DNA of 54,142 nt. Source: Bacteroidota bacterium. Its GTDB lineage: Bacteria; Bacteroidota; Bacteroidia; Palsa-948. Where the stretch lies: contig JAHEYK010000003.1 of the NCBI GenBank assembly GCA_023251625.1, forward strand, positions 1,380 to 55,521. The letters are read 5' to 3'. Shown one piece after another: positions 3,125 through 54,142 of this stretch. The notes beneath the pieces were generated by a model that saw only the letters and a program-made list of their open reading frames with translations, was not told the origin of the DNA and did no database searches. Both the position numbers and the translations under genes were made by a program. Position 1 is the first letter of the stretch, and each line of letters begins with the position of its first letter.

Positions 3125-3385
3125 GAGGTGGAATCATTGCTATTGCTCCGGCAGGTCTTCTGGCTTGTTCTGTTCCACACCTTCCCGTCAATAAAAGACA
3201 GTGGTATTTCGTGAAACAATTAATCGTCTTGTCCTCCCTAATCCCCACACCGAGGGACAAAGGAAAACCAAACTATTAACTAAAGAACTTACAGCAGCGG
3301 GAACTGCTCACGATTTGAACGTGATTCCCTTTTAATCCTAACATCTGATAATAACTATCAGAAATCAGGAACCATTGCAGGACGA
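3125..3385 (-). promoter_or_regulatory. Cobalamin (B12) riboswitch; ends approximate
   Basis: The minus-strand read shows GGTTCCTG, a hairpin, AAAAGGGAATCACG..GTGAGCAGTTCCCGCTGCTGTAAG, then CACTGTC..GACGGGAAGGTG. A B12 box AAGCCAGAAGACCTGCCGGAG sits at plus coordinates 3146-3166. These are the conserved core elements of the cobalamin riboswitch class. Confidence 0.85.
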
Positions 3386-3457
3386 AGGTACAATTAGAAT
3401 GAGGGAGAAATGAATTGACTGATCTTTTTTATCCACAGACTTATCAAACGAATGAGA

Positions 3458-5815: not shown

Positions 5816-8800
5816 TTATTGGATAATTATTTTTTTGTTTATGATCGTATGACCACTTGTTACTCGTACCTGATAAACACCTTTTGCATATCCGGCCATG
5901 TTGATAAGAAGTTTTTTACTTCTATCTAAAGCCTCCATTATACGAAGTTCTTCTCCCATCATATTAAATATCTTCACCTCTGCCCTATCCATACCGTTGT
6001 TCAATTCCAACATAAAGGAACCGCTGGATGGGTTGGGATAAACAGAAACCACATAACTGTCATTCACCCCCGGAACAGCGGTTACGGTAGTATCAGCAAT
6101 ACGATTCACATTTGATTTAGATAAGTTAAGGTTGGAGGTCATTGGATCAGGGCCATGTTTGATAGAGACCACACAAGCCGATCCGGGATGATCCACTTCG
6201 ATGTAATATCCGATCGTATCGGTGATCAAATAACATTTCGTATCGGTCCATGCATTATTTCCAAAACTAACCGAATCTACAGGGTGATAGACGCCTGTTC
6301 CTGTATCGCGCATGATCCGGTATTGAGTGATCGGAAACCCGATATAATCATTCCAGGTAAGGTTGTAACCGCAAGGAGATGCAGGCGTAACAGCCAGGTG
6401 AATGGTTCTGTGGAATGAACTTAAAGGGCTTTCATTTCCGCAAACATCCACGGTAGAGACTTTATACTTGTACGCAGTGATATTAGGATTTACCCCTATG
6501 GTAGAATCCACATATTGGCTCTGGCTGCTGTATTTAGTGTTTCCGATGTACGTGAACGTTGAAGCGATCTCTCTGTAAATTCTAAAGCTGTCAATAGTAG
6601 TTGAAACAGGTTTCTCCCAAACAATTACATTCATTTTGGAAGTGCTGTCTACTGTTACTGCACAGATATTCTGAGATATCAGCGTATCCACCGTAACAGC
6701 AAGCATAGAAGGCGTTCCGCTTCCGCAGGCATTAGTTGGAGTCACCATCACATTGCCTGTCAATGCAGAATCAGAATAGTTGACAAGGACCGCATTCGTA
6801 TTATTACCCGAAGCAATAACTGCTCCTGTTGGCAGAACCCATATATACCCGGTTGCATGATTGACCGGGGTTACACTGTATGAAACACCGATTTGAACAG
6901 GACATATTGATATGGTTGATGCACCGGTAATTGCACCGGCAGGATCCGGTAAAGGGTTTACTGTCACGGCAAACGAATCGGTTGACAACCCGTTTCCACA
7001 GCCGTTGGTTCCGGTCACGGTTACAAATCCTGTATCAGCTGTTGCCGAATAATCTACAGTGATCGTATTTGTATTTAATCCACTTGCAATGGAAGCGCCC
7101 TGAGGAAGTGACCAGCTATAACCTGTTGCATTCGCAATTGCAGGAACCGTATAAACAACGCCCGATTGTGTTTGACAAACCGTTGCGCTGCCTGTGATCG
7201 TATTGGCAAGGCCCGGGAGCGGAGAAACTGTAACTGCAACAGACGAAGCAACTCCATCACCACATCCATTGATTCCATTCACTGAGATGGTCCCTGAAGC
7301 AGCTGTAGGAGAGATGCTCATTATTATATTGTTTGTGTTGGCACCTGAATTAAGAATAAATCCGGCAGGAAGAATCCAGTTGTATCCGGTAGTTGCATTA
7401 GGGATAGAACTGACAAATGCCGATATGGTTGCAGGGCTGCCTGCGCAAACGGTCGTATTTCCTGAATTAAAAAGTATGGCAGTAGCTGCAGATGGAAGTG
7501 GGTTTACAGTGACTGACTGCGTAGAAGCAGTTCCGCTTCCGCAAGTATTCACACCTTTAACACTTATATTTCCAGAAGCAGCAGCAATAGAATAAGCTAC
7601 AGTGACTGTTCCTGTATTCGCAGATCCGACAATCGAAACTCCGGAGGGAAGTGTCCATGAATATGTATTTGCATACTGGAGTGAAGCAATACCATATACC
7701 ACAGTATCACCGGGACAAACAGTCGTATTCCCTGAAATAATACCTGCAGGAACAGGAAGTGAATCGATACTAAAACCATACGCTGATGAAGAAGTGCCTA
7801 CACCACATGAGTTTTGTCCCATCACATCAATTGTTCCATCAGTAGCAGAGTTTGAAAAGCTAACCGTTATTGAATTTGTATTGAGTCCTCCTGTAATAGA
7901 TGCACCGGGAGGAAGCGTCCATGTATATGTACTTGCACCCGATATTGCACCGGTAGTAAATACAACTCCGGTGGCACTCTGGCAGGCACTTGTAGGGCCT
8001 GAAATCACGCCTGTGGCACCGGGTAAATTATTCATAGCTATTGCCTGATTATAGGTAGTACCATCTCCGCAAGAGTTATGGCCCGTCACAGAAATATTTC
8101 CTGCAACTGCACTGTTACTGAAGCTAACTGAAATGGTATTTGAAGTTGCAGCGCCAATAATGGTTCCGCCTGAAGGCACAGACCAGGAATAGGTAGTGGC
8201 CCCGGAAATAGGTGTAACAGAATAAGTAATACCCGTCTGGCCCTGACAGACTGTTGCAGGCCCGCTGATGGTTGTAGCTGTTCCCGGCAAGGCAGTAAGA
8301 TTAATATAGCCTGACTTTCCATTAGAACTTGAACTAGGTATGTTGGATGTGATCGTTAATGAAACCGAATATATTCCCGGAGTTGAATAAGTGATCGGAG
8401 GAGGGTTGGTACCTATTGAAGTAGTGTAGGTACTGGGTGTTCCTCCCGGAAAACTCCAGGTCCAGTCAATGATCGTATTACCGCCTGAAAAAGAGAGATC
8501 AGAAAAACTTACGGTTGTATTGGTACCGCAGAAATTAGTTTGATTAGCAATAAAATCAGCCGTCATCGGACAATTATTTCTTTTAACGCTTACCTGGCTC
8601 ACTGAAGCAGGACAAGGTGCATTGGAGATAGTCCATGCAAGACGAACCGAATCCAAAACAGCCATCGTGTTCAACTGAGAATTATAAGCTGATGGTGTTT
8701 GAATCGCCTGCGTAGAAGATCCGGACTTATATATAAAAGACCATCCGCCCGTTCCGATTCCACCAGAAGAAGGATCATTTCCTGCAAGATTTGTTGCTGA

Positions 8801-51032: not shown

Positions 51033-53534
51033 TTAATTACCCTTGGATGGAGGCATCAGGTTAGGATCCACCTTGTCTTCGCTTTCTTTATCCTCTTTAA
51101 ATTCAAGATGGCCGAATTTCCAGGTGAAATTAAAACCAAAAGATCTGTAAGGCAGCTGGCGTTCGTTTGATATGGCAAAGTTTGTTCCGGCCTGTTCAGT
51201 TTTTTGGTCAATGTATTCATTCAGAAAGTTTGTAGCAGTGATCGCAATGCTTGCCTGTTTATGGAATAACTGTTTACGGAAGGCAAAGTTATACGTGGTG
51301 AATGAGGGTACTGTTCCCTGCGCATTGATCCGTGAAGAATTAAAATTCCCGAACAACTCTATAACCAGTGTTTTACTCATCTGGTAAGCAGCATTCAAAT
51401 TGGTGCGGTACATAAAACCATGCACATCGCCTCCGGAAGGAAGTCCTGTGGTGATGTATCGTTCAAAAAGTGAAATATTGGAACGCAGACTTAGCTTTTT
51501 AGTAAGAGGTATGTTTACAAAAAGACTCCATCCGATATTATCTTCTTTGCCAATATTATCACGCGATGTAATCGAAACATCATAATAAGTAACATTACCT
51601 ACCGTATAAGCGGAATAATACCGTGTATAGGGCTGAATATCGTTCCTGTTGCCCCGGTAAAAAAGTGTTGAATTAATATTTACCTTATTGGCAAAGCTCT
51701 TGTTAAAGCCAATTTCAATTTTATCTCCCGTTTCTGTTTTCAGGTCCGGTTTTCCGGTAGTTATGTTTTTAGGATCAGATAGATCAAGGAATGGGTTCAG
51801 GTCTTCGTAATCGGGCCTTTCAATGCGATGGGTATAGCTGAGCTTAAGCGTTTGCCTGTTCTCAAACGTATGCGATAGCACCACGGAAGGGACGAGCGTA
51901 TTATAGGATGGGATATTCAAATTACCTGAATTTGAAAAATTTGCTTTCGCTACTGTATATTCATCACGGCATCCCATTTTAATATCCAGCGCATCAAACA
52001 GTTTAAATGTACTTGAGAGATAACACGCATAAACCGTTCTGTCGAATGTTGAAGTATTGGATCGTGTATCAGAGTAGTCATAATTTCCGGAACCTATATT
52101 CAGCAAATACACATCCGACACAGCCTTGGTATGATAAAGCTCTGCTTTCGCACCGGCCTCTATCGTTGCATCTTCGCCGACAGGCTGTACATAGTTTATA
52201 GAAAAATTATTTTCATTTTCAAGGCCCGGGTTGTTTCCGTAAGAACTGCTTGTCAGTGTGTCATCCGAATATATCTTATATTGAGAATAGCTGTTTCCAT
52301 AGGAGGATGTATACAGGAGTTCCAGTTCCTGATCTTCCTTATCAAATTTCTTTGTATAGCCCAACTCGCAATCCAGCGCACCTTCATGGAATGTATTTAT
52401 TGTATTTATAACATCTGCATAACTAGCAAACACATTGCCGGATGCATCTACGGATGCTCCTTGCCTGGTGTTGTAACCCGAATTGTTATGACCGGCATAA
52501 TCATAGCCTATCGACCCTGAAATATTATTTTTAGGATTTATATCCCAATCAAAACCAATACCGGCTTCATATCCCTGCCTGCTGAAATCGCTTGAACCCT
52601 TTTGATCCAGCACAGAAGAAGAAGTGTCATCCTGCGAAGTTCGATGATTATTATTCAGTGTAGTAGAAAGCAGTTGAGCATTCCCGCTAAAAAAAGCATT
52701 CACACCAAAATGTCCTTTACGTACATTCAGGTTAAATGAGCCGTTCTCAAGGCGTGTGCCTCCGGATAAAGAAAGATTGCCATTTACTCCCTGGGCCGAA
52801 CTTTTTTTCAATAGAATATTGATAATGCCTCCGGTTCCTTCCGCATCGTATTTTGCACCCGGACTGGTGATCACTTCGACACTTTCGATCATGCTGGCAG
52901 GAATGGATTGCAGCACTTCCGCCACATTCTTGCCGAAAAGCACAGAAGGTTTTCCATTTATCAAAAAGCGGATGCTGGAACTGCCTTGTAATTCCACGTT
53001 TCCATTTACGTCTACCGATACTTCAGGGATTTTTTTCAGAATATCAGCCGCTACACCTGTTTGAGAGGTGATATCCTGATCTGCATGATAAACCATCTTG
53101 TCAATTTTATTTTCAATAAGTGCTTTTTCAGACGTAACAGTTACTTCTTTTAAAGTGGTTTGCTTGTTGGCCAATTTAATATCACCCAGGGAAAGTTCTG
53201 AATTTTCTTTACTCACAATAATATTGTTCTTAGCTCCGGTTTTGTAGCCAATAAAAAAGATCTGGACCTTGTAAGTACCATCTGCCACATTTGATATTTT
53301 AAAAACACCTTTCACGTCAGCGGTAGCGCCATTCACAATTTTTCCTTCCGCCTCTGTGAGCAGGCTGATCGAGGCATATTCTATAGGCTGGCCTGAAATG
53401 GAGTCGATGATTCGTCCGCTGATCTTCCCTCTTGCTTTTGCTTCAAGTTCCTGCGCATGCAAGGTGAATGCTGATAGGACAAAAGCAAAAAGTAAAAAAC
53501 AGGCTTGTTTCATAAGACGGGTAAATTTATTCAT
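51033..53534 (-). CDS. TonB-dependent receptor / outer-membrane beta-barrel protein with N-terminal carboxypeptidase-regulatory-like domain
   Basis: The signal is MNKFTRLMKQACFLLFAFVLSAFTLHAQ. The CarbopepD_reg segment is GKISGRIIDSISGQPIEYASISL, followed by a plug (ADILKKIPEVSVD, INGKP) and a barrel ending in FNFTWKF plus a tail. The ATG at 53534 is preferred over the TTG at 53537. Confidence 0.8.
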   Translation of the reverse strand: MNKFTRLMKQACFLLFAFVLSAFTLHAQELEAKARGKISGRIIDSISGQPIEYASISLLTEAEGKIVNGATADVKGVFKISNVADGTYKVQIFFIGYKTGAKNNIIVSKENSELSLGDIKLANKQTTLKEVTVTSEKALIENKIDKMVYHADQDITSQTGVAADILKKIPEVSVDVNGNVELQGSSSIRFLINGKPSVLFGKNVAEVLQSIPASMIESVEVITSPGAKYDAEGTGGIINILLKKSSAQGVNGNLSLSGGTRLENGSFNLNVRKGHFGVNAFFSGNAQLLSTTLNNNHRTSQDDTSSSVLDQKGSSDFSRQGYEAGIGFDWDINPKNNISGSIGYDYAGHNNSGYNTRQGASVDASGNVFASYADVINTINTFHEGALDCELGYTKKFDKEDQELELLYTSSYGNSYSQYKIYSDDTLTSSSYGNNPGLENENNFSINYVQPVGEDATIEAGAKAELYHTKAVSDVYLLNIGSGNYDYSDTRSNTSTFDRTVYACYLSSTFKLFDALDIKMGCRDEYTVAKANFSNSGNLNIPSYNTLVPSVVLSHTFENRQTLKLSYTHRIERPDYEDLNPFLDLSDPKNITTGKPDLKTETGDKIEIGFNKSFANKVNINSTLFYRGNRNDIQPYTRYYSAYTVGNVTYYDVSITSRDNIGKEDNIGWSLFVNIPLTKKLSLRSNISLFERYITTGLPSGGDVHGFMYRTNLNAAYQMSKTLVIELFGNFNSSRINAQGTVPSFTTYNFAFRKQLFHKQASIAITATNFLNEYIDQKTEQAGTNFAISNERQLPYRSFGFNFTWKFGHLEFKEDKESEDKVDPNLMPPSKGN

Positions 53535-53589
53535 CAAATCTGTAGAAATGCTGAAGTTGTGAATATATTCTTCAGTAATCTTTTTAGAT

Positions 53590-53597
53590 TATTTTTG
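53590..53597 (+). promoter_or_regulatory. Candidate -7 promoter box TATTTTTG, 12 nt upstream of the tRNA-Leu half-copy
   Basis: TAnnTTTG match. No comparable box lies in front of the intact tRNA at 53919. Confidence 0.4.
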
Positions 53598-53609
53598 CAC
53601 TCCTTTTCT

Positions 53610-53666
53610 GCTCAGGTGGTGGAACTGGTATACCTGCCTGCGCAGGCAGGCACGCAGGACTTAAAA
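53610..53666 (+). pseudogene. Duplicate of tRNA-Leu(UAA) nucleotides 1-38, interrupted by an 18-nt perfect palindrome
   Basis: GCTCAGGTGGTGGAACTGGTATAC, then [CCTGCCTGCGCAGGCAGG-type insert, 53634-53651], then ACGCAGGACTTAAAA. Apart from the insert it is identical to 53919-53957. There is no 3' half. Confidence 0.85.
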
Positions 53667-53675
53667 GTAAAACGC

Positions 53676-53915
53676 ATGTTTTATGTGTATGCCATAAGTA
53701 GCAGAGTCAAATCTTACATTTATGTAGGATTAACTGATAATTTAGAAAGGCGACTGAAACAGCATTTTGATGGAAGAAGTAAAACAACAAGACCCTATCG
53801 ACCCTTTGAATTGATTTATTCTGAAACAAAAGAGACACGTATAGCAGCAAGAGAAAGAGAAAAATATTTTAAGACAAGTAAAGGAAAAGATTATTTAAGA
53901 ACAATATCCAAATGA
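53676..53915 (+). CDS. Minimal GIY-YIG nuclease family protein (79 aa, UPF0213/YhbQ-like)
   Basis: MFYVYAISSRVKSYIYVGLTDNLERRLKQH...AREREKYFK carries the GIY, YIG, Arg and Glu motifs. The upstream part of the 136-aa track ORF reads through the pseudo-tRNA and is rejected. Confidence 0.8.
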   Translation: MFYVYAISSRVKSYIYVGLTDNLERRLKQHFDGRSKTTRPYRPFELIYSETKETRIAAREREKYFKTSKGKDYLRTISK

Positions 53916-53918
53916 ATA

Positions 53919-54004
53919 GCTCAGGTGGTGGAACTGGTATACACGCAGGACTTAAAATCCTGTGGGCCTAAAAGCCCGTACGGGTTCGATTCCCGTCCTG
54001 AGCA
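53919..54004 (+). tRNA. tRNA-Leu, anticodon UAA (class II, long variable arm; CCA not encoded)
   Basis: The acceptor GCTCAGG pairs with CCTGAGC plus a discriminator A. The anticodon stem-loop is CAGGA-CTTAAAA-TCCTG. The variable arm is GGGC-CTAAAA-GCCC. The T arm is ACGGG-TTCGATT-CCCGT. Confidence 0.9.
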
Positions 54005-54022
54005 CAAATTTTGTTGTACTTT

Positions 54023-54142
54023 ATGAAACGCATCATCGATTACAGAAAGCTTTTCGGCATTACCAAGAACGAAGATCTTGCCCAATTAAAAAGCATTTAC
54101 CGGAATTTAATGAAAGAATGGCACCCGGATAAATTCCAGGAA
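54023..54142 (+). CDS. J-domain (DnaJ-like) protein, N-terminal fragment (continues beyond window)
   Basis: My translation is MKRIIDYRKLFGITKNEDLAQLKSIYRNLMKEWHPDKFQE, with the HPD motif. Confidence 0.7.
   Translation, partial: MKRIIDYRKLFGITKNEDLAQLKSIYRNLMKEWHPDKFQE

Follow-up and report, generated by a model that had tools for sequence, protein, structure and literature searches.

The stretch of DNA analysed here, referred to as the window, comprises 54,142 nucleotides (nt) of contig JAHEYK010000003.1 from a Bacteroidota bacterium, and feature coordinates are given as window positions. Towards its 3' end lies a small cassette in which an open reading frame (ORF) for a minimal GIY-YIG nuclease is set between a partial, palindrome-bearing copy of a tRNA-Leu(UAA) gene and the intact gene itself (Table 1). 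The latter is the single intact tRNA called in the window by ARAGORN and Rfam (53919–54004/5). Two direct repeats recovered by repeat search tie it to the upstream copy, with 53610–53633 equal to 53919–53942 over 24 nt and 53651–53666 equal to 53942–53957 over 16 nt (both 100%). Jointly they span positions 1–39 of the tRNA sequence (canonical 1–38), up to the last base of the anticodon loop (CTTAAAA), and because these exact repeats are in register with the tRNA, chance resemblance is excluded. No further copy of the tRNA-Leu(UAA) 5' part was found within the 54-kb window. The half-copy is interrupted by an 18-nt palindrome, CCTGCCTGCGCAGGCAGG, hereafter called PAL, which occurs once in the 54 kb, against a chance expectation of 0.01 matches allowing up to three mismatches.

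The GIY-YIG gene is the sole ORF between the repeats, beginning 9 nt past the half-copy and stopping 3 nt short of the intact tRNA, and no tyrosine or serine recombinase gene is found there. Its frame is open upstream from 53505 through the tRNA fragment and PAL (read as LPAQAG), so gene callers over-extend the protein; the product called in the window, P0001, has 99 amino acids (aa), and many database homologues have 97–110 aa. As the upstream extension is not conserved, the ATG at 53676 is the real start. The spacers between fragment and ORF are likewise not conserved among relatives. An earlier prediction, made from the sequence of this stretch (the original prediction), had placed the half-copy, the palindrome, the ORF and the intact tRNA at these same coordinates. 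It had the half-copy running from tRNA +1 to the last base of the anticodon loop and a 79-codon GIY-YIG ORF filling the gap between the copies; all of this was borne out by the exact repeats and by a Pfam GIY-YIG match (E = 3e-18). Its statement that neither a ribozyme nor splicing is involved also holds, as the tRNA is continuous and 53300–54142 gave no Intron_gpI match even at E ≤ 10 with a search that does detect a group I intron in another locus (L112).

Table 1. Parts of the cassette and their positions in the window.
Feature	Position	Strand	Basis or remark
Putative native tRNA promoter -7 box, TATTTTTG (Bacteroidota type TAnnTTTG)	53590..53597	+	Read from sequence; 12 nt 5' of the fragment
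Outer tRNA fragment: tRNA-Leu(UAA) nt 1-23, acceptor 5' strand through D-loop	53610..53632	+	100% repeat of 53919-53941
PAL: 18-nt perfect palindrome CCTGCCTGCGCAGGCAGG, local version of family consensus CCTGCCTGCCGGCAGGCAGG	53633..53650	.	At D-loop/D-stem boundary 22/23
Inner tRNA fragment: tRNA nt 24-39, anticodon stem 5' strand and anticodon loop	53651..53666	+	100% repeat of 53942-53957
9-nt A-rich spacer ahead of the start codon	53667..53675	+	Read from sequence
79-aa minimal GIY-YIG nuclease gene, Slx1/UPF0213-like catalytic domain only	53676..53915	+	Pfam PF01541
Intact tRNA-Leu(UAA), class II, uninterrupted	53919..54004	+	ARAGORN; Rfam RF00005, 61.5 bits, full length

Profile, catalytic constellation and predicted fold all place the encoded protein in the GIY-YIG superfamily. 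It matches Pfam PF01541 with 66.2 bits (cut-off 22.6, E = 3.2e-18) over profile positions 1–74 of 78. Residues Y5, Y16, R26, H30 and E62 are invariant in 28 homologues, and the spacing of the catalytic residues, 11/10/4, equals that of Y6/Y17/R27/H31 in I-TevI. The AlphaFold2 model (mean confidence score, pLDDT, 94.5) has the topology beta-beta-alpha-beta-alpha-alpha. Profile comparison with the PDB ranked 1ywl (9.7e-8) and 1zg2 (3.2e-7) before Slx1 (3e-3) and I-TevI (0.02–0.35), and Foldseek returned UPF0213, Slx1 (probability 1.0) and I-TevI catalytic domains in the same order. The nearest solved structures by profile and fold are the UPF0213 proteins EF2693 and BH0048 and the Slx1 nuclease domain (30–33% identity), YhbQ being a further member of this closest group. 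By sequence and modelled fold the protein is Slx1/UPF0213-like, closer to this branch than to homing-type domains such as that of I-TevI or to UvrC-type domains.

Slx1 cuts branched and stem-loop DNA, carries a C-terminal zinc-finger domain and needs Slx4. Activity on stem-loop DNA fits a hairpin partner such as PAL. The C-terminal RING/zinc-finger domain is absent from the cassette protein, whose 79 aa form one domain, so in architecture it is not an Slx1 orthologue. No assigned function and no tRNA or palindrome context was found for UPF0213 proteins in the literature searched. A prokaryotic Slx1-like domain has been described in fusion with a TrmH-type (Gm18, D-loop) tRNA methyltransferase in a 2006 phylogenomic study of GIY-YIG proteins (PMC1564403), which hints at a further link of the Slx1-like branch to tRNA D-loops. 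Phage origin of the gene was considered and rejected, as tblastn gave no match in 50,697 phage genomes and the PHROG and PADLOC matches, to homing endonucleases, were weak, generic and N-terminal only.

The arrangement recurs far beyond the window. A protein search returned hundreds of homologues of 77–80 aa, and a profile search of 1.84 billion representatives returned 3,235 clusters (at 50% identity) with E ≤ 1e-10. Scanning one genome per species yielded a set of 80 loci (numbered with the prefix L), hosted by Bacteroidota, Ignavibacteriota, many lineages of the Candidate Phyla Radiation (CPR/Patescibacteria) and a few metagenome-assembled genomes (MAGs) with other labels. A same-strand tRNA-Leu, with any of the five anticodons, was called by ARAGORN next to the ORF in 67 of the 80 loci; it lies directly 3' of the stop codon in 49 (type D) and shortly 5' of the start codon in 18 (type U). 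Eleven loci left unclassified are explained by truncation at contig ends, by tandem arrays or by tRNAs that ARAGORN missed. On the far side of the ORF, a partial copy of the same tRNA scores above the 99th percentile of a null in 62 of the 67 loci that could be evaluated. This copy begins at nt 1–2 in 41 of 47 type D loci and finishes at the last nt in 11 of 15 type U loci, that is, it retains the outer end of the tRNA, the 5' end if upstream of the ORF and the 3' end if downstream. Essentially every ORF sits between one complete tRNA and a truncated copy that keeps the outer end. The linkage of homologues to partially duplicated tRNA genes envisaged in the original prediction was thereby confirmed, and its duplication of the 5' half describes most loci, but a mirror form (tRNA, ORF, then palindrome plus tRNA 3' part) also exists. 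Remoter members, at ~40% identity, are arranged in this way too, on tRNA-Lys, Asn, Ser and Arg. As a separate observation, viral contig L112 contains a group I intron (RF00028, 86 bits, 1182–1416) after the tRNA copy 3' of its GIY-YIG/PAL cassette; this tRNA copy received no ARAGORN call, and its anticodon loop may be split by the intron.

Tandem duplication of tRNA genes is frequent, and L005 and L042 hold two almost full tRNA copies, as might be expected if an unrelated small ORF had come to lie between the products of an ordinary local duplication, with no functional link. The same ORF family, palindrome and geometry are nevertheless found in ~80 independent loci from several phyla and with five kinds of tRNA, and this recurrence effectively refutes such an explanation, to which we attach next to no credence.

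The most conserved part of the cassette is PAL. It has the form CCTGCCTG-N2-8-CAGGCAGG, with the consensus CCTGCCTGCCGGCAGGCAGG and a length of 18–22 nt, and is located within 130 nt of the ORF in 67 of the 80 loci (84%), in Bacteroidota, Ignavibacteriota and CPR alike. It lies only on the side opposite the intact tRNA in 52 loci, on both sides in four and only on the tRNA side in none. In all loci aligned in detail, the partial copy is split by a sequence close to this consensus. Its insertion is precise, the tRNA sequence resuming across PAL without target duplication or loss. In type D loci the insertion points concentrate after nt 14/15 or 22/23, at either edge of the D-loop GG motif, and in type U loci where T-stem and T-loop meet; 8/9, 17, 31, 39 and the variable loop are used less often. 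The position class (14–17 vs 22–23) correlates with similarity of the ORF proteins (permutation p = 2e-4), with or without the Flavobacteriaceae clade, and shows no association with the anticodon of the host tRNA (p = 0.23). The original prediction noted the palindrome as an insert; it turned out to be a conserved core part that is placed according to ORF lineage. Its 8-nt arms are conserved around a centre of variable length (2–8 nt), a shape more suited to a hairpin than to a duplex site bound by a dimer. G:T wobbles in PAL variants, a strand bias of which would point to an RNA or sense-strand hairpin, were counted as 30 vs 14, with a single clade contributing 13 of the 30. A sequencing or assembly artefact is ruled out by the homologous positions of PAL in isolate genomes and MAGs from many projects.

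The segment of the partial copy outside PAL is identical to the adjoining tRNA at 654 of 657 positions (99.5%, 34 loci), whereas identity in the inner segment, on the ORF side of PAL, drops to 85% over 10 nt and to 67% over 20 nt. Renewal of, or constraint on, the outer piece would produce such a difference, with the inner piece carried along as a passenger. It is at odds with the original prediction, which pictured a unit of about 290 nt (the ORF plus a replacement 5' half) inserted at the 38/39 junction, with the original 5' half left as a relic; on that model the relic would be passive and the palindrome a later, incidental arrival. In the window the homology does end exactly with the anticodon loop, and several well-preserved loci end at 38–46 (L003, L079, L027, L055, L053 and, on other tRNAs, L112 and L209). 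Mitochondrial elements termed mORFs, compared below, behave as this model supposes (PMC3630166). Among all loci, however, the inner homology may stop anywhere between about nt 23 and nt 71, 38/39 being one value among many, and the sharp, recurrent break is at PAL (22/23 here, 14/15 elsewhere), which places the real discontinuity of the window at 53632/53633. The presence of the palindrome at lineage-specific positions in 84% of loci, the decay of only the segment between PAL and the ORF, a conservation of fragment and PAL far above neutral expectation (see below) and the mirror-image type U, which has no 38/39 junction, also speak against an element of that kind, and we consider it very improbable.

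Gain or loss of the cassette is evident at the prs-tRNA-Leu(CAA) locus of Flavobacteriaceae, where empty and occupied alleles of a tRNA-Leu gene, the comparison proposed in the original prediction, were found at the same synteny. In L258, L259 and L261 the promoter is followed directly by the tRNA; in L242 and L257 it is followed by fragment, PAL, ORF and tRNA. No empty counterpart of the window locus was found, the nearest orthologues of the flanking TonB-dependent receptor being only ~64% identical and none of them beside a tRNA-Leu. The cassette unit forms tandem arrays in several loci, the ORF is decayed in L214, and L165 has an ORF-less unit. In L159 (700–1200) and L257 (reverse of 1–1500) the duplication reaches ~30 nt 5' of tRNA +1 and includes the last codons of the ORF, which points to former tandem units whose upstream ORF was lost. 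The intact tRNA and the partial copy of L031 differ by a compensatory change in the variable arm, so the two derive from two functional alleles, and in L039 the acceptor stem of the fragment differs from that of the intact tRNA. In most loci, the window included, the tRNA copies are identical.

The ORF tree mixes phyla, anticodons and orientations, which implies older transfer. The exception is a Flavobacteriaceae clade, in which the cassette looks vertically inherited. Its ORFs have a median synonymous divergence (dS) of 1.41 and a ratio of nonsynonymous to synonymous divergence (dN/dS) of 0.17. The string GTAGA+PAL+CGCGC is invariant in 13 Flavobacteriaceae loci, and the 23-nt outer fragment nearly so, in the midst of adjacent sequence that cannot be aligned. 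Such invariance where synonymous sites are saturated (dS ~1.4) means that the fragment is constrained or continually renewed, and it adds to the case against a passive relic.

A box of the TATTTTTG type precedes the fragment in Flavobacteriaceae loci as well, and precedes the tRNA directly in empty sites. Neither a terminator nor a -7 box was found between the fragment and the intact tRNA of the window. Together with the putative promoter 5' of the fragment, this makes a single transcript of fragment, PAL, ORF and tRNA likely; judging from the sequence, the cassette is probably transcribed in this form from the resident tRNA promoter, with RNase P freeing the tRNA.

These features raise the possibility that the cassette serves its host. 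Co-expressed with tRNA-Leu, the nuclease could have a housekeeping or regulatory role, for instance in the processing or repair of nucleic acids, and fragment plus PAL could be functional at the RNA level as a leader or trailer, for example as a hairpin with a stabilising or attenuating effect. The purifying selection on the ORF, the invariance of fragment and PAL amid diverged flanks, the probable co-transcript, the fixation of the cassette at a single locus in populations and the location of PAL, in both orientations, at the transcript end distal to the tRNA are all consistent with this, as is the fusion of an Slx1-like domain to a TrmH-type methyltransferase mentioned above (PMC1564403). 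The cassette is, however, wholly missing in closely syntenic relatives, its cross-phylum distribution is patchy and its tree incongruent, and other tRNAs also serve as hosts. As the two orientations keep different tRNA parts, PAL would be the only common RNA element. In the window the fragment-PAL leader folds no better than shuffled sequence (z = -0.15), and no Rfam family matches it. A host function is further weakened by the empty sites, tandem arrays, decayed ORFs and ORF-less relics, and we judge it quite improbable.

The explanation that we tentatively favour, giving it a little less than an even chance, is that of a selfish cassette, made up of a minimal Slx1/UPF0213-type GIY-YIG nuclease and its cognate hairpin palindrome and resident in a partial tandem duplication of a tRNA gene. 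The nuclease would break a cassette-free tRNA gene at the lineage-specific position later marked by PAL, which in the window would be the 22/23 junction (53632/53633) and not 38/39. The break would be repaired by copying from a cassette-bearing gene, and the copied tract would comprise PAL, a short passenger piece of the tRNA, the ORF and the part of the tRNA that complements the resident gene. In this way an intact tRNA would be regenerated, and the resident outer piece would stay beside PAL. PAL itself would probably act as a hairpin or cruciform that is bound or cut by the structure-specific nuclease. Recombination between the repeated tRNA segments could give rise to tandem arrays and to precise loss. 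In favour of this explanation are the recurrent tRNA-linked architecture, the association of PAL with the ORF, the contrast between outer and inner segments, the signs of gain, loss and mobility, the invariant catalytic residues and purifying selection of the protein, and the known mORF analogue. The dependence of PAL position on ORF lineage also speaks for it, and is the one indirect hint of site-specific cleavage of the gene-less allele.

PAL is not restricted to the cassette. A scan of viral and metagenome contigs for exact PAL, which gave 155 PAL-seeded loci among the matches listed, found it in 35 viral-contig stretches and in at least 120 metagenome contigs; by our own estimate, which assumes ~60 Gb of viral sequence, about 0.05 viral matches would arise by chance. 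A GIY-YIG gene lies within 150 nt of PAL in six of the 120 metagenome contigs, and the GIY-YIG family is the only ORF family that recurs within 200 nt of PAL in unrelated loci (both among the matches listed). Solo PALs are largely intergenic, and their flanks are enriched for direct repeats (p = 2e-5). The idea that they sit in the loops of pre-existing hairpins was rejected, since flank self-complementarity did not exceed that of control sites (Mann-Whitney p = 0.34). PAL contains no stop codon in any of the six frames, and it is read in-frame, as LPAGRQ, in a P-type ATPase, just 5' of VAFVGDGINDAPAL, and in SecA (L208 at about 12286 and L197 at about 1197). In L128, at about 4154, the frame shifts across PAL inside an ORF that by eye resembles an IS91-like transposase. 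PAL also occurs in the variable loop of tRNA-Met(CAT) (L105, 2239–2330; L082, about 8570–8660). ARAGORN still calls the PAL-bearing gene as a 92-nt tRNA, the hairpin mimicking a long variable arm. Many metagenome contigs (L116, L149, L164, L166, L173, L183, L194 and others) start or stop within tens of bases of PAL, which suggests that assemblies break at PAL, whether because the repeat is multi-copy or because its hairpin disturbs sequencing.

Further palindrome families accompany PAL. In some samples a second 18-nt palindrome, PAL2 (TCCCGATAGTTATCGGGA), stands in place of AAT within the D-loop portion of the fragment (L241 and L244 vs L242, about 1935–1965); it is present or absent within one population with an identical ORF protein, and the same family occurs in Leeuwenhoekiella (L020). 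A third family, CCTACCGAAGGTAGG, was found in L018, L046, L060 and L025. In the metagenome contigs L150 (200–1360), L194 (1–330) and L167 (7140–7420), intact tRNA-Ala, tRNA-Val and tRNA-Ser genes stand beside ORF-less partial copies that hold PAL and several other short palindromes, and L167 has a GIY-YIG gene ~2 kb from its palindrome-rich tRNA relic.

Several of these observations, together with others, weigh against a selfish cassette that moves as a unit. Most solo PALs have neither a nuclease gene nor a tRNA nearby (among the matches listed). Some relics carry two or three palindromes drawn from different families, and in one case the palindrome is polymorphic in a population; this indicates that PAL insertion is possible without transfer of the ORF. 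Recent hopping was not seen, since identical proteins from 72 and 30 sample blocks were always at one locus, and the Flavobacteriaceae cassette, apparently inherited vertically and with an invariant fragment and PAL, suggests a function or constraint beyond homing. The protein, a 79-aa catalytic core, has no DNA-binding module of the kind found in sequence-specific homing enzymes. Finally, the regenerated tRNA keeps the presumed target and the partial copy alone is disrupted by PAL, which leaves the immunity of the occupied allele unexplained.

The main rival makes the tiny palindromes themselves the mobile units. On this account the GIY-YIG protein would be a largely immobile, possibly domesticated, hairpin-specific nuclease that acts in trans and promotes precise insertion and removal of palindromes, with tRNA-gene loops as favoured targets. 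Insertions would be visible only in redundant partial copies, those into functional copies being lethal, and the duplicated tRNA would offer the ORF a safe harbour. The excess of solo PALs over ORF-linked ones, with the GIY-YIG gene still their only recurrent neighbour, fits this well. So do the conserved arms with a variable, hairpin-like centre, insertion without target-site duplication, the several palindrome families with two or three insertions per relic, the gain or loss of PAL2 within one population, the ORF-less relics full of palindromes and the in-frame read-through in SecA and the P-type ATPase. An Slx1-like nuclease and ORF loci that are stable in populations would likewise be expected. 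To our knowledge, however, GIY-YIG enzymes only cut, and no joining activity is known for them. The sole PAL of the 54-kb window is that of the cassette, and the flanks of solo PALs are not enriched for hairpin stems. Palindrome mobility alone also leaves unexplained the constant embedding of the ORF in a tRNA duplication, the tracking of ORF lineage by PAL position and the foreign and native tRNA copies. We regard it as unlikely, though a serious contender, and it and the selfish cassette are not mutually exclusive. A more specific form, rather unlikely in our view, is that PAL and its sister palindromes are ~20-nt 'nano-transposons', inserted precisely and with no target duplication into tRNA-gene loops and elsewhere by a minimal Slx1-like nuclease acting on hairpin or cruciform DNA, with help only from host repair or ligation. 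If true, this would be nuclease-only mobility, with no transposase, integrase or reverse transcriptase, in Bacteroidota, Ignavibacteriota, CPR and beyond. It would be an analogue, by a new mechanism, of the REP/RAYT system discussed below, and duplication of the tRNA would allow both cell and nuclease gene to withstand an attack that strikes an essential gene.

The closest counterparts of the selfish cassette are the mORFs of fungal mitochondria, which create gene hybrids in atp6 of Allomyces and in atp6, atp9, cox2 and nad3 of Glomus (PMC3630166). Like the cassette as interpreted here, they are free-standing endonuclease ORFs in an essential gene that carry a duplicate gene end restoring its function (PMC3630166). 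The resident gene end remains as a partial copy, as it would in the cassette, and the foreign copy may diverge from the native one; differing copies were seen for the cassette in L031 and L039. An ORF flanked by a complete and a partial copy of its host gene, as in mORFs, was seen in 62 of 67 loci. The mORFs differ in that they occupy protein-coding mitochondrial genes and replace only the C-terminal end, whereas the cassette uses bacterial tRNA genes and either end. They also encode larger LAGLIDADG or GIY-YIG enzymes with DNA-binding parts, as opposed to a 79-aa catalytic domain, and have no conserved junction palindrome, as opposed to a near-obligatory PAL. SegB of phage T4 is, like the cassette ORF, a GIY-YIG gene among tRNA genes, and it spreads by cleaving the gene-less allele with co-conversion of flanking markers (PMC2330249). 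SegB, however, is of I-TevI type with a DNA-binding region, and it lies between tRNA genes with neither tRNA duplication nor palindrome (PMC2330249). Presence or absence at the same site, typical of free-standing homing genes, was observed at prs-tRNA-Leu(CAA); an extended DNA-recognition module was not found in the cassette protein. Islands and prophages that target tRNA genes also bring a replacement tRNA part (PMC9897764). They use a tyrosine or serine recombinase, usually carry kilobases of cargo and usually duplicate the 3' part (PMC9897764), whereas the cassette has no integrase, a 240-nt cargo and, in most loci, a duplicated 5' part.

Among palindromic elements, repetitive extragenic palindromes (REPs) are short, dispersed hairpin palindromes with many solo copies, species-specific and not known to be tied to tRNA genes. 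Their associated tyrosine transposases (RAYTs) are HUH/Y1 enzymes that cut and rejoin single-stranded DNA, and the RAYT gene is single, characteristically flanked by its cognate palindrome and often vertically inherited. PAL resembles this system in part: the GIY-YIG gene is flanked by its palindrome and solos are abundant in metagenomes, but the window holds one PAL only. PAL is, moreover, conserved across phyla and tied to tRNA genes, and the protein has a GIY-YIG fold, not HUH (Y1). Rickettsia palindromic elements and the GC-cluster/double-hairpin elements of mitochondria are very small palindromic insertions that can land in-frame in genes. The former, brought to mind by the read-through of PAL in SecA and the P-type ATPase, measure ~100–150 nt, and these classes are longer than PAL and lineage-restricted. 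We know of no dedicated nuclease gene for Rickettsia palindromic or GC-cluster elements.

The original prediction knew of no mechanistic description of such a cassette. None was found in 8.3 million full texts, subscription-only literature lying outside that scope; the relevant works were those on SegB, the 2006 phylogenomic study and that on mORFs, and the mORFs do provide a described analogue (PMC3630166). The cassette differs from mORFs and SegB in four ways: its minimal Slx1-like enzyme, its tRNA host, its two orientations and its near-obligatory palindrome. It appears to be an undescribed selfish element of tRNA genes. A family of ~3,200 clusters, as a lower bound, is annotated merely as 'GIY-YIG nuclease family protein' despite a highly specific genomic anatomy. 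The present findings give bacterial UPF0213/Slx1-like proteins a first concrete functional context, with a 20-nt hairpin as candidate substrate and with definite positions in tRNA genes as targets. Two origins of partial tRNA genes are recognised, integrases and CRISPR (PMC9897764), and the cassette accounts for a class outside these. In these phyla it also accounts for wrongly annotated tRNAs, for ORF calls that are too long and for breaks in contigs. The identity of the palindrome across phyla is a striking marker of horizontal spread. If the enzyme recognises the hairpin, the two would form the smallest known pair of a site- or structure-specific nuclease and its partner, and a tractable model for the colonisation of essential, ultra-conserved genes by selfish elements without killing the host.

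Some minor features of the window complete the description. The cassette is neighboured by the TonB-dependent receptor gene and by a DnaJ-like gene. A 17-nt inverted repeat, 88% complementary, links 53568–53584, just 5' of the promoter box, with 53885–53901 at the 3' end of the ORF, and may be a chance event. A cobalamin riboswitch (RF00174, 73 bits) is located at 3133–3391 on the minus strand and is unrelated to the cassette.

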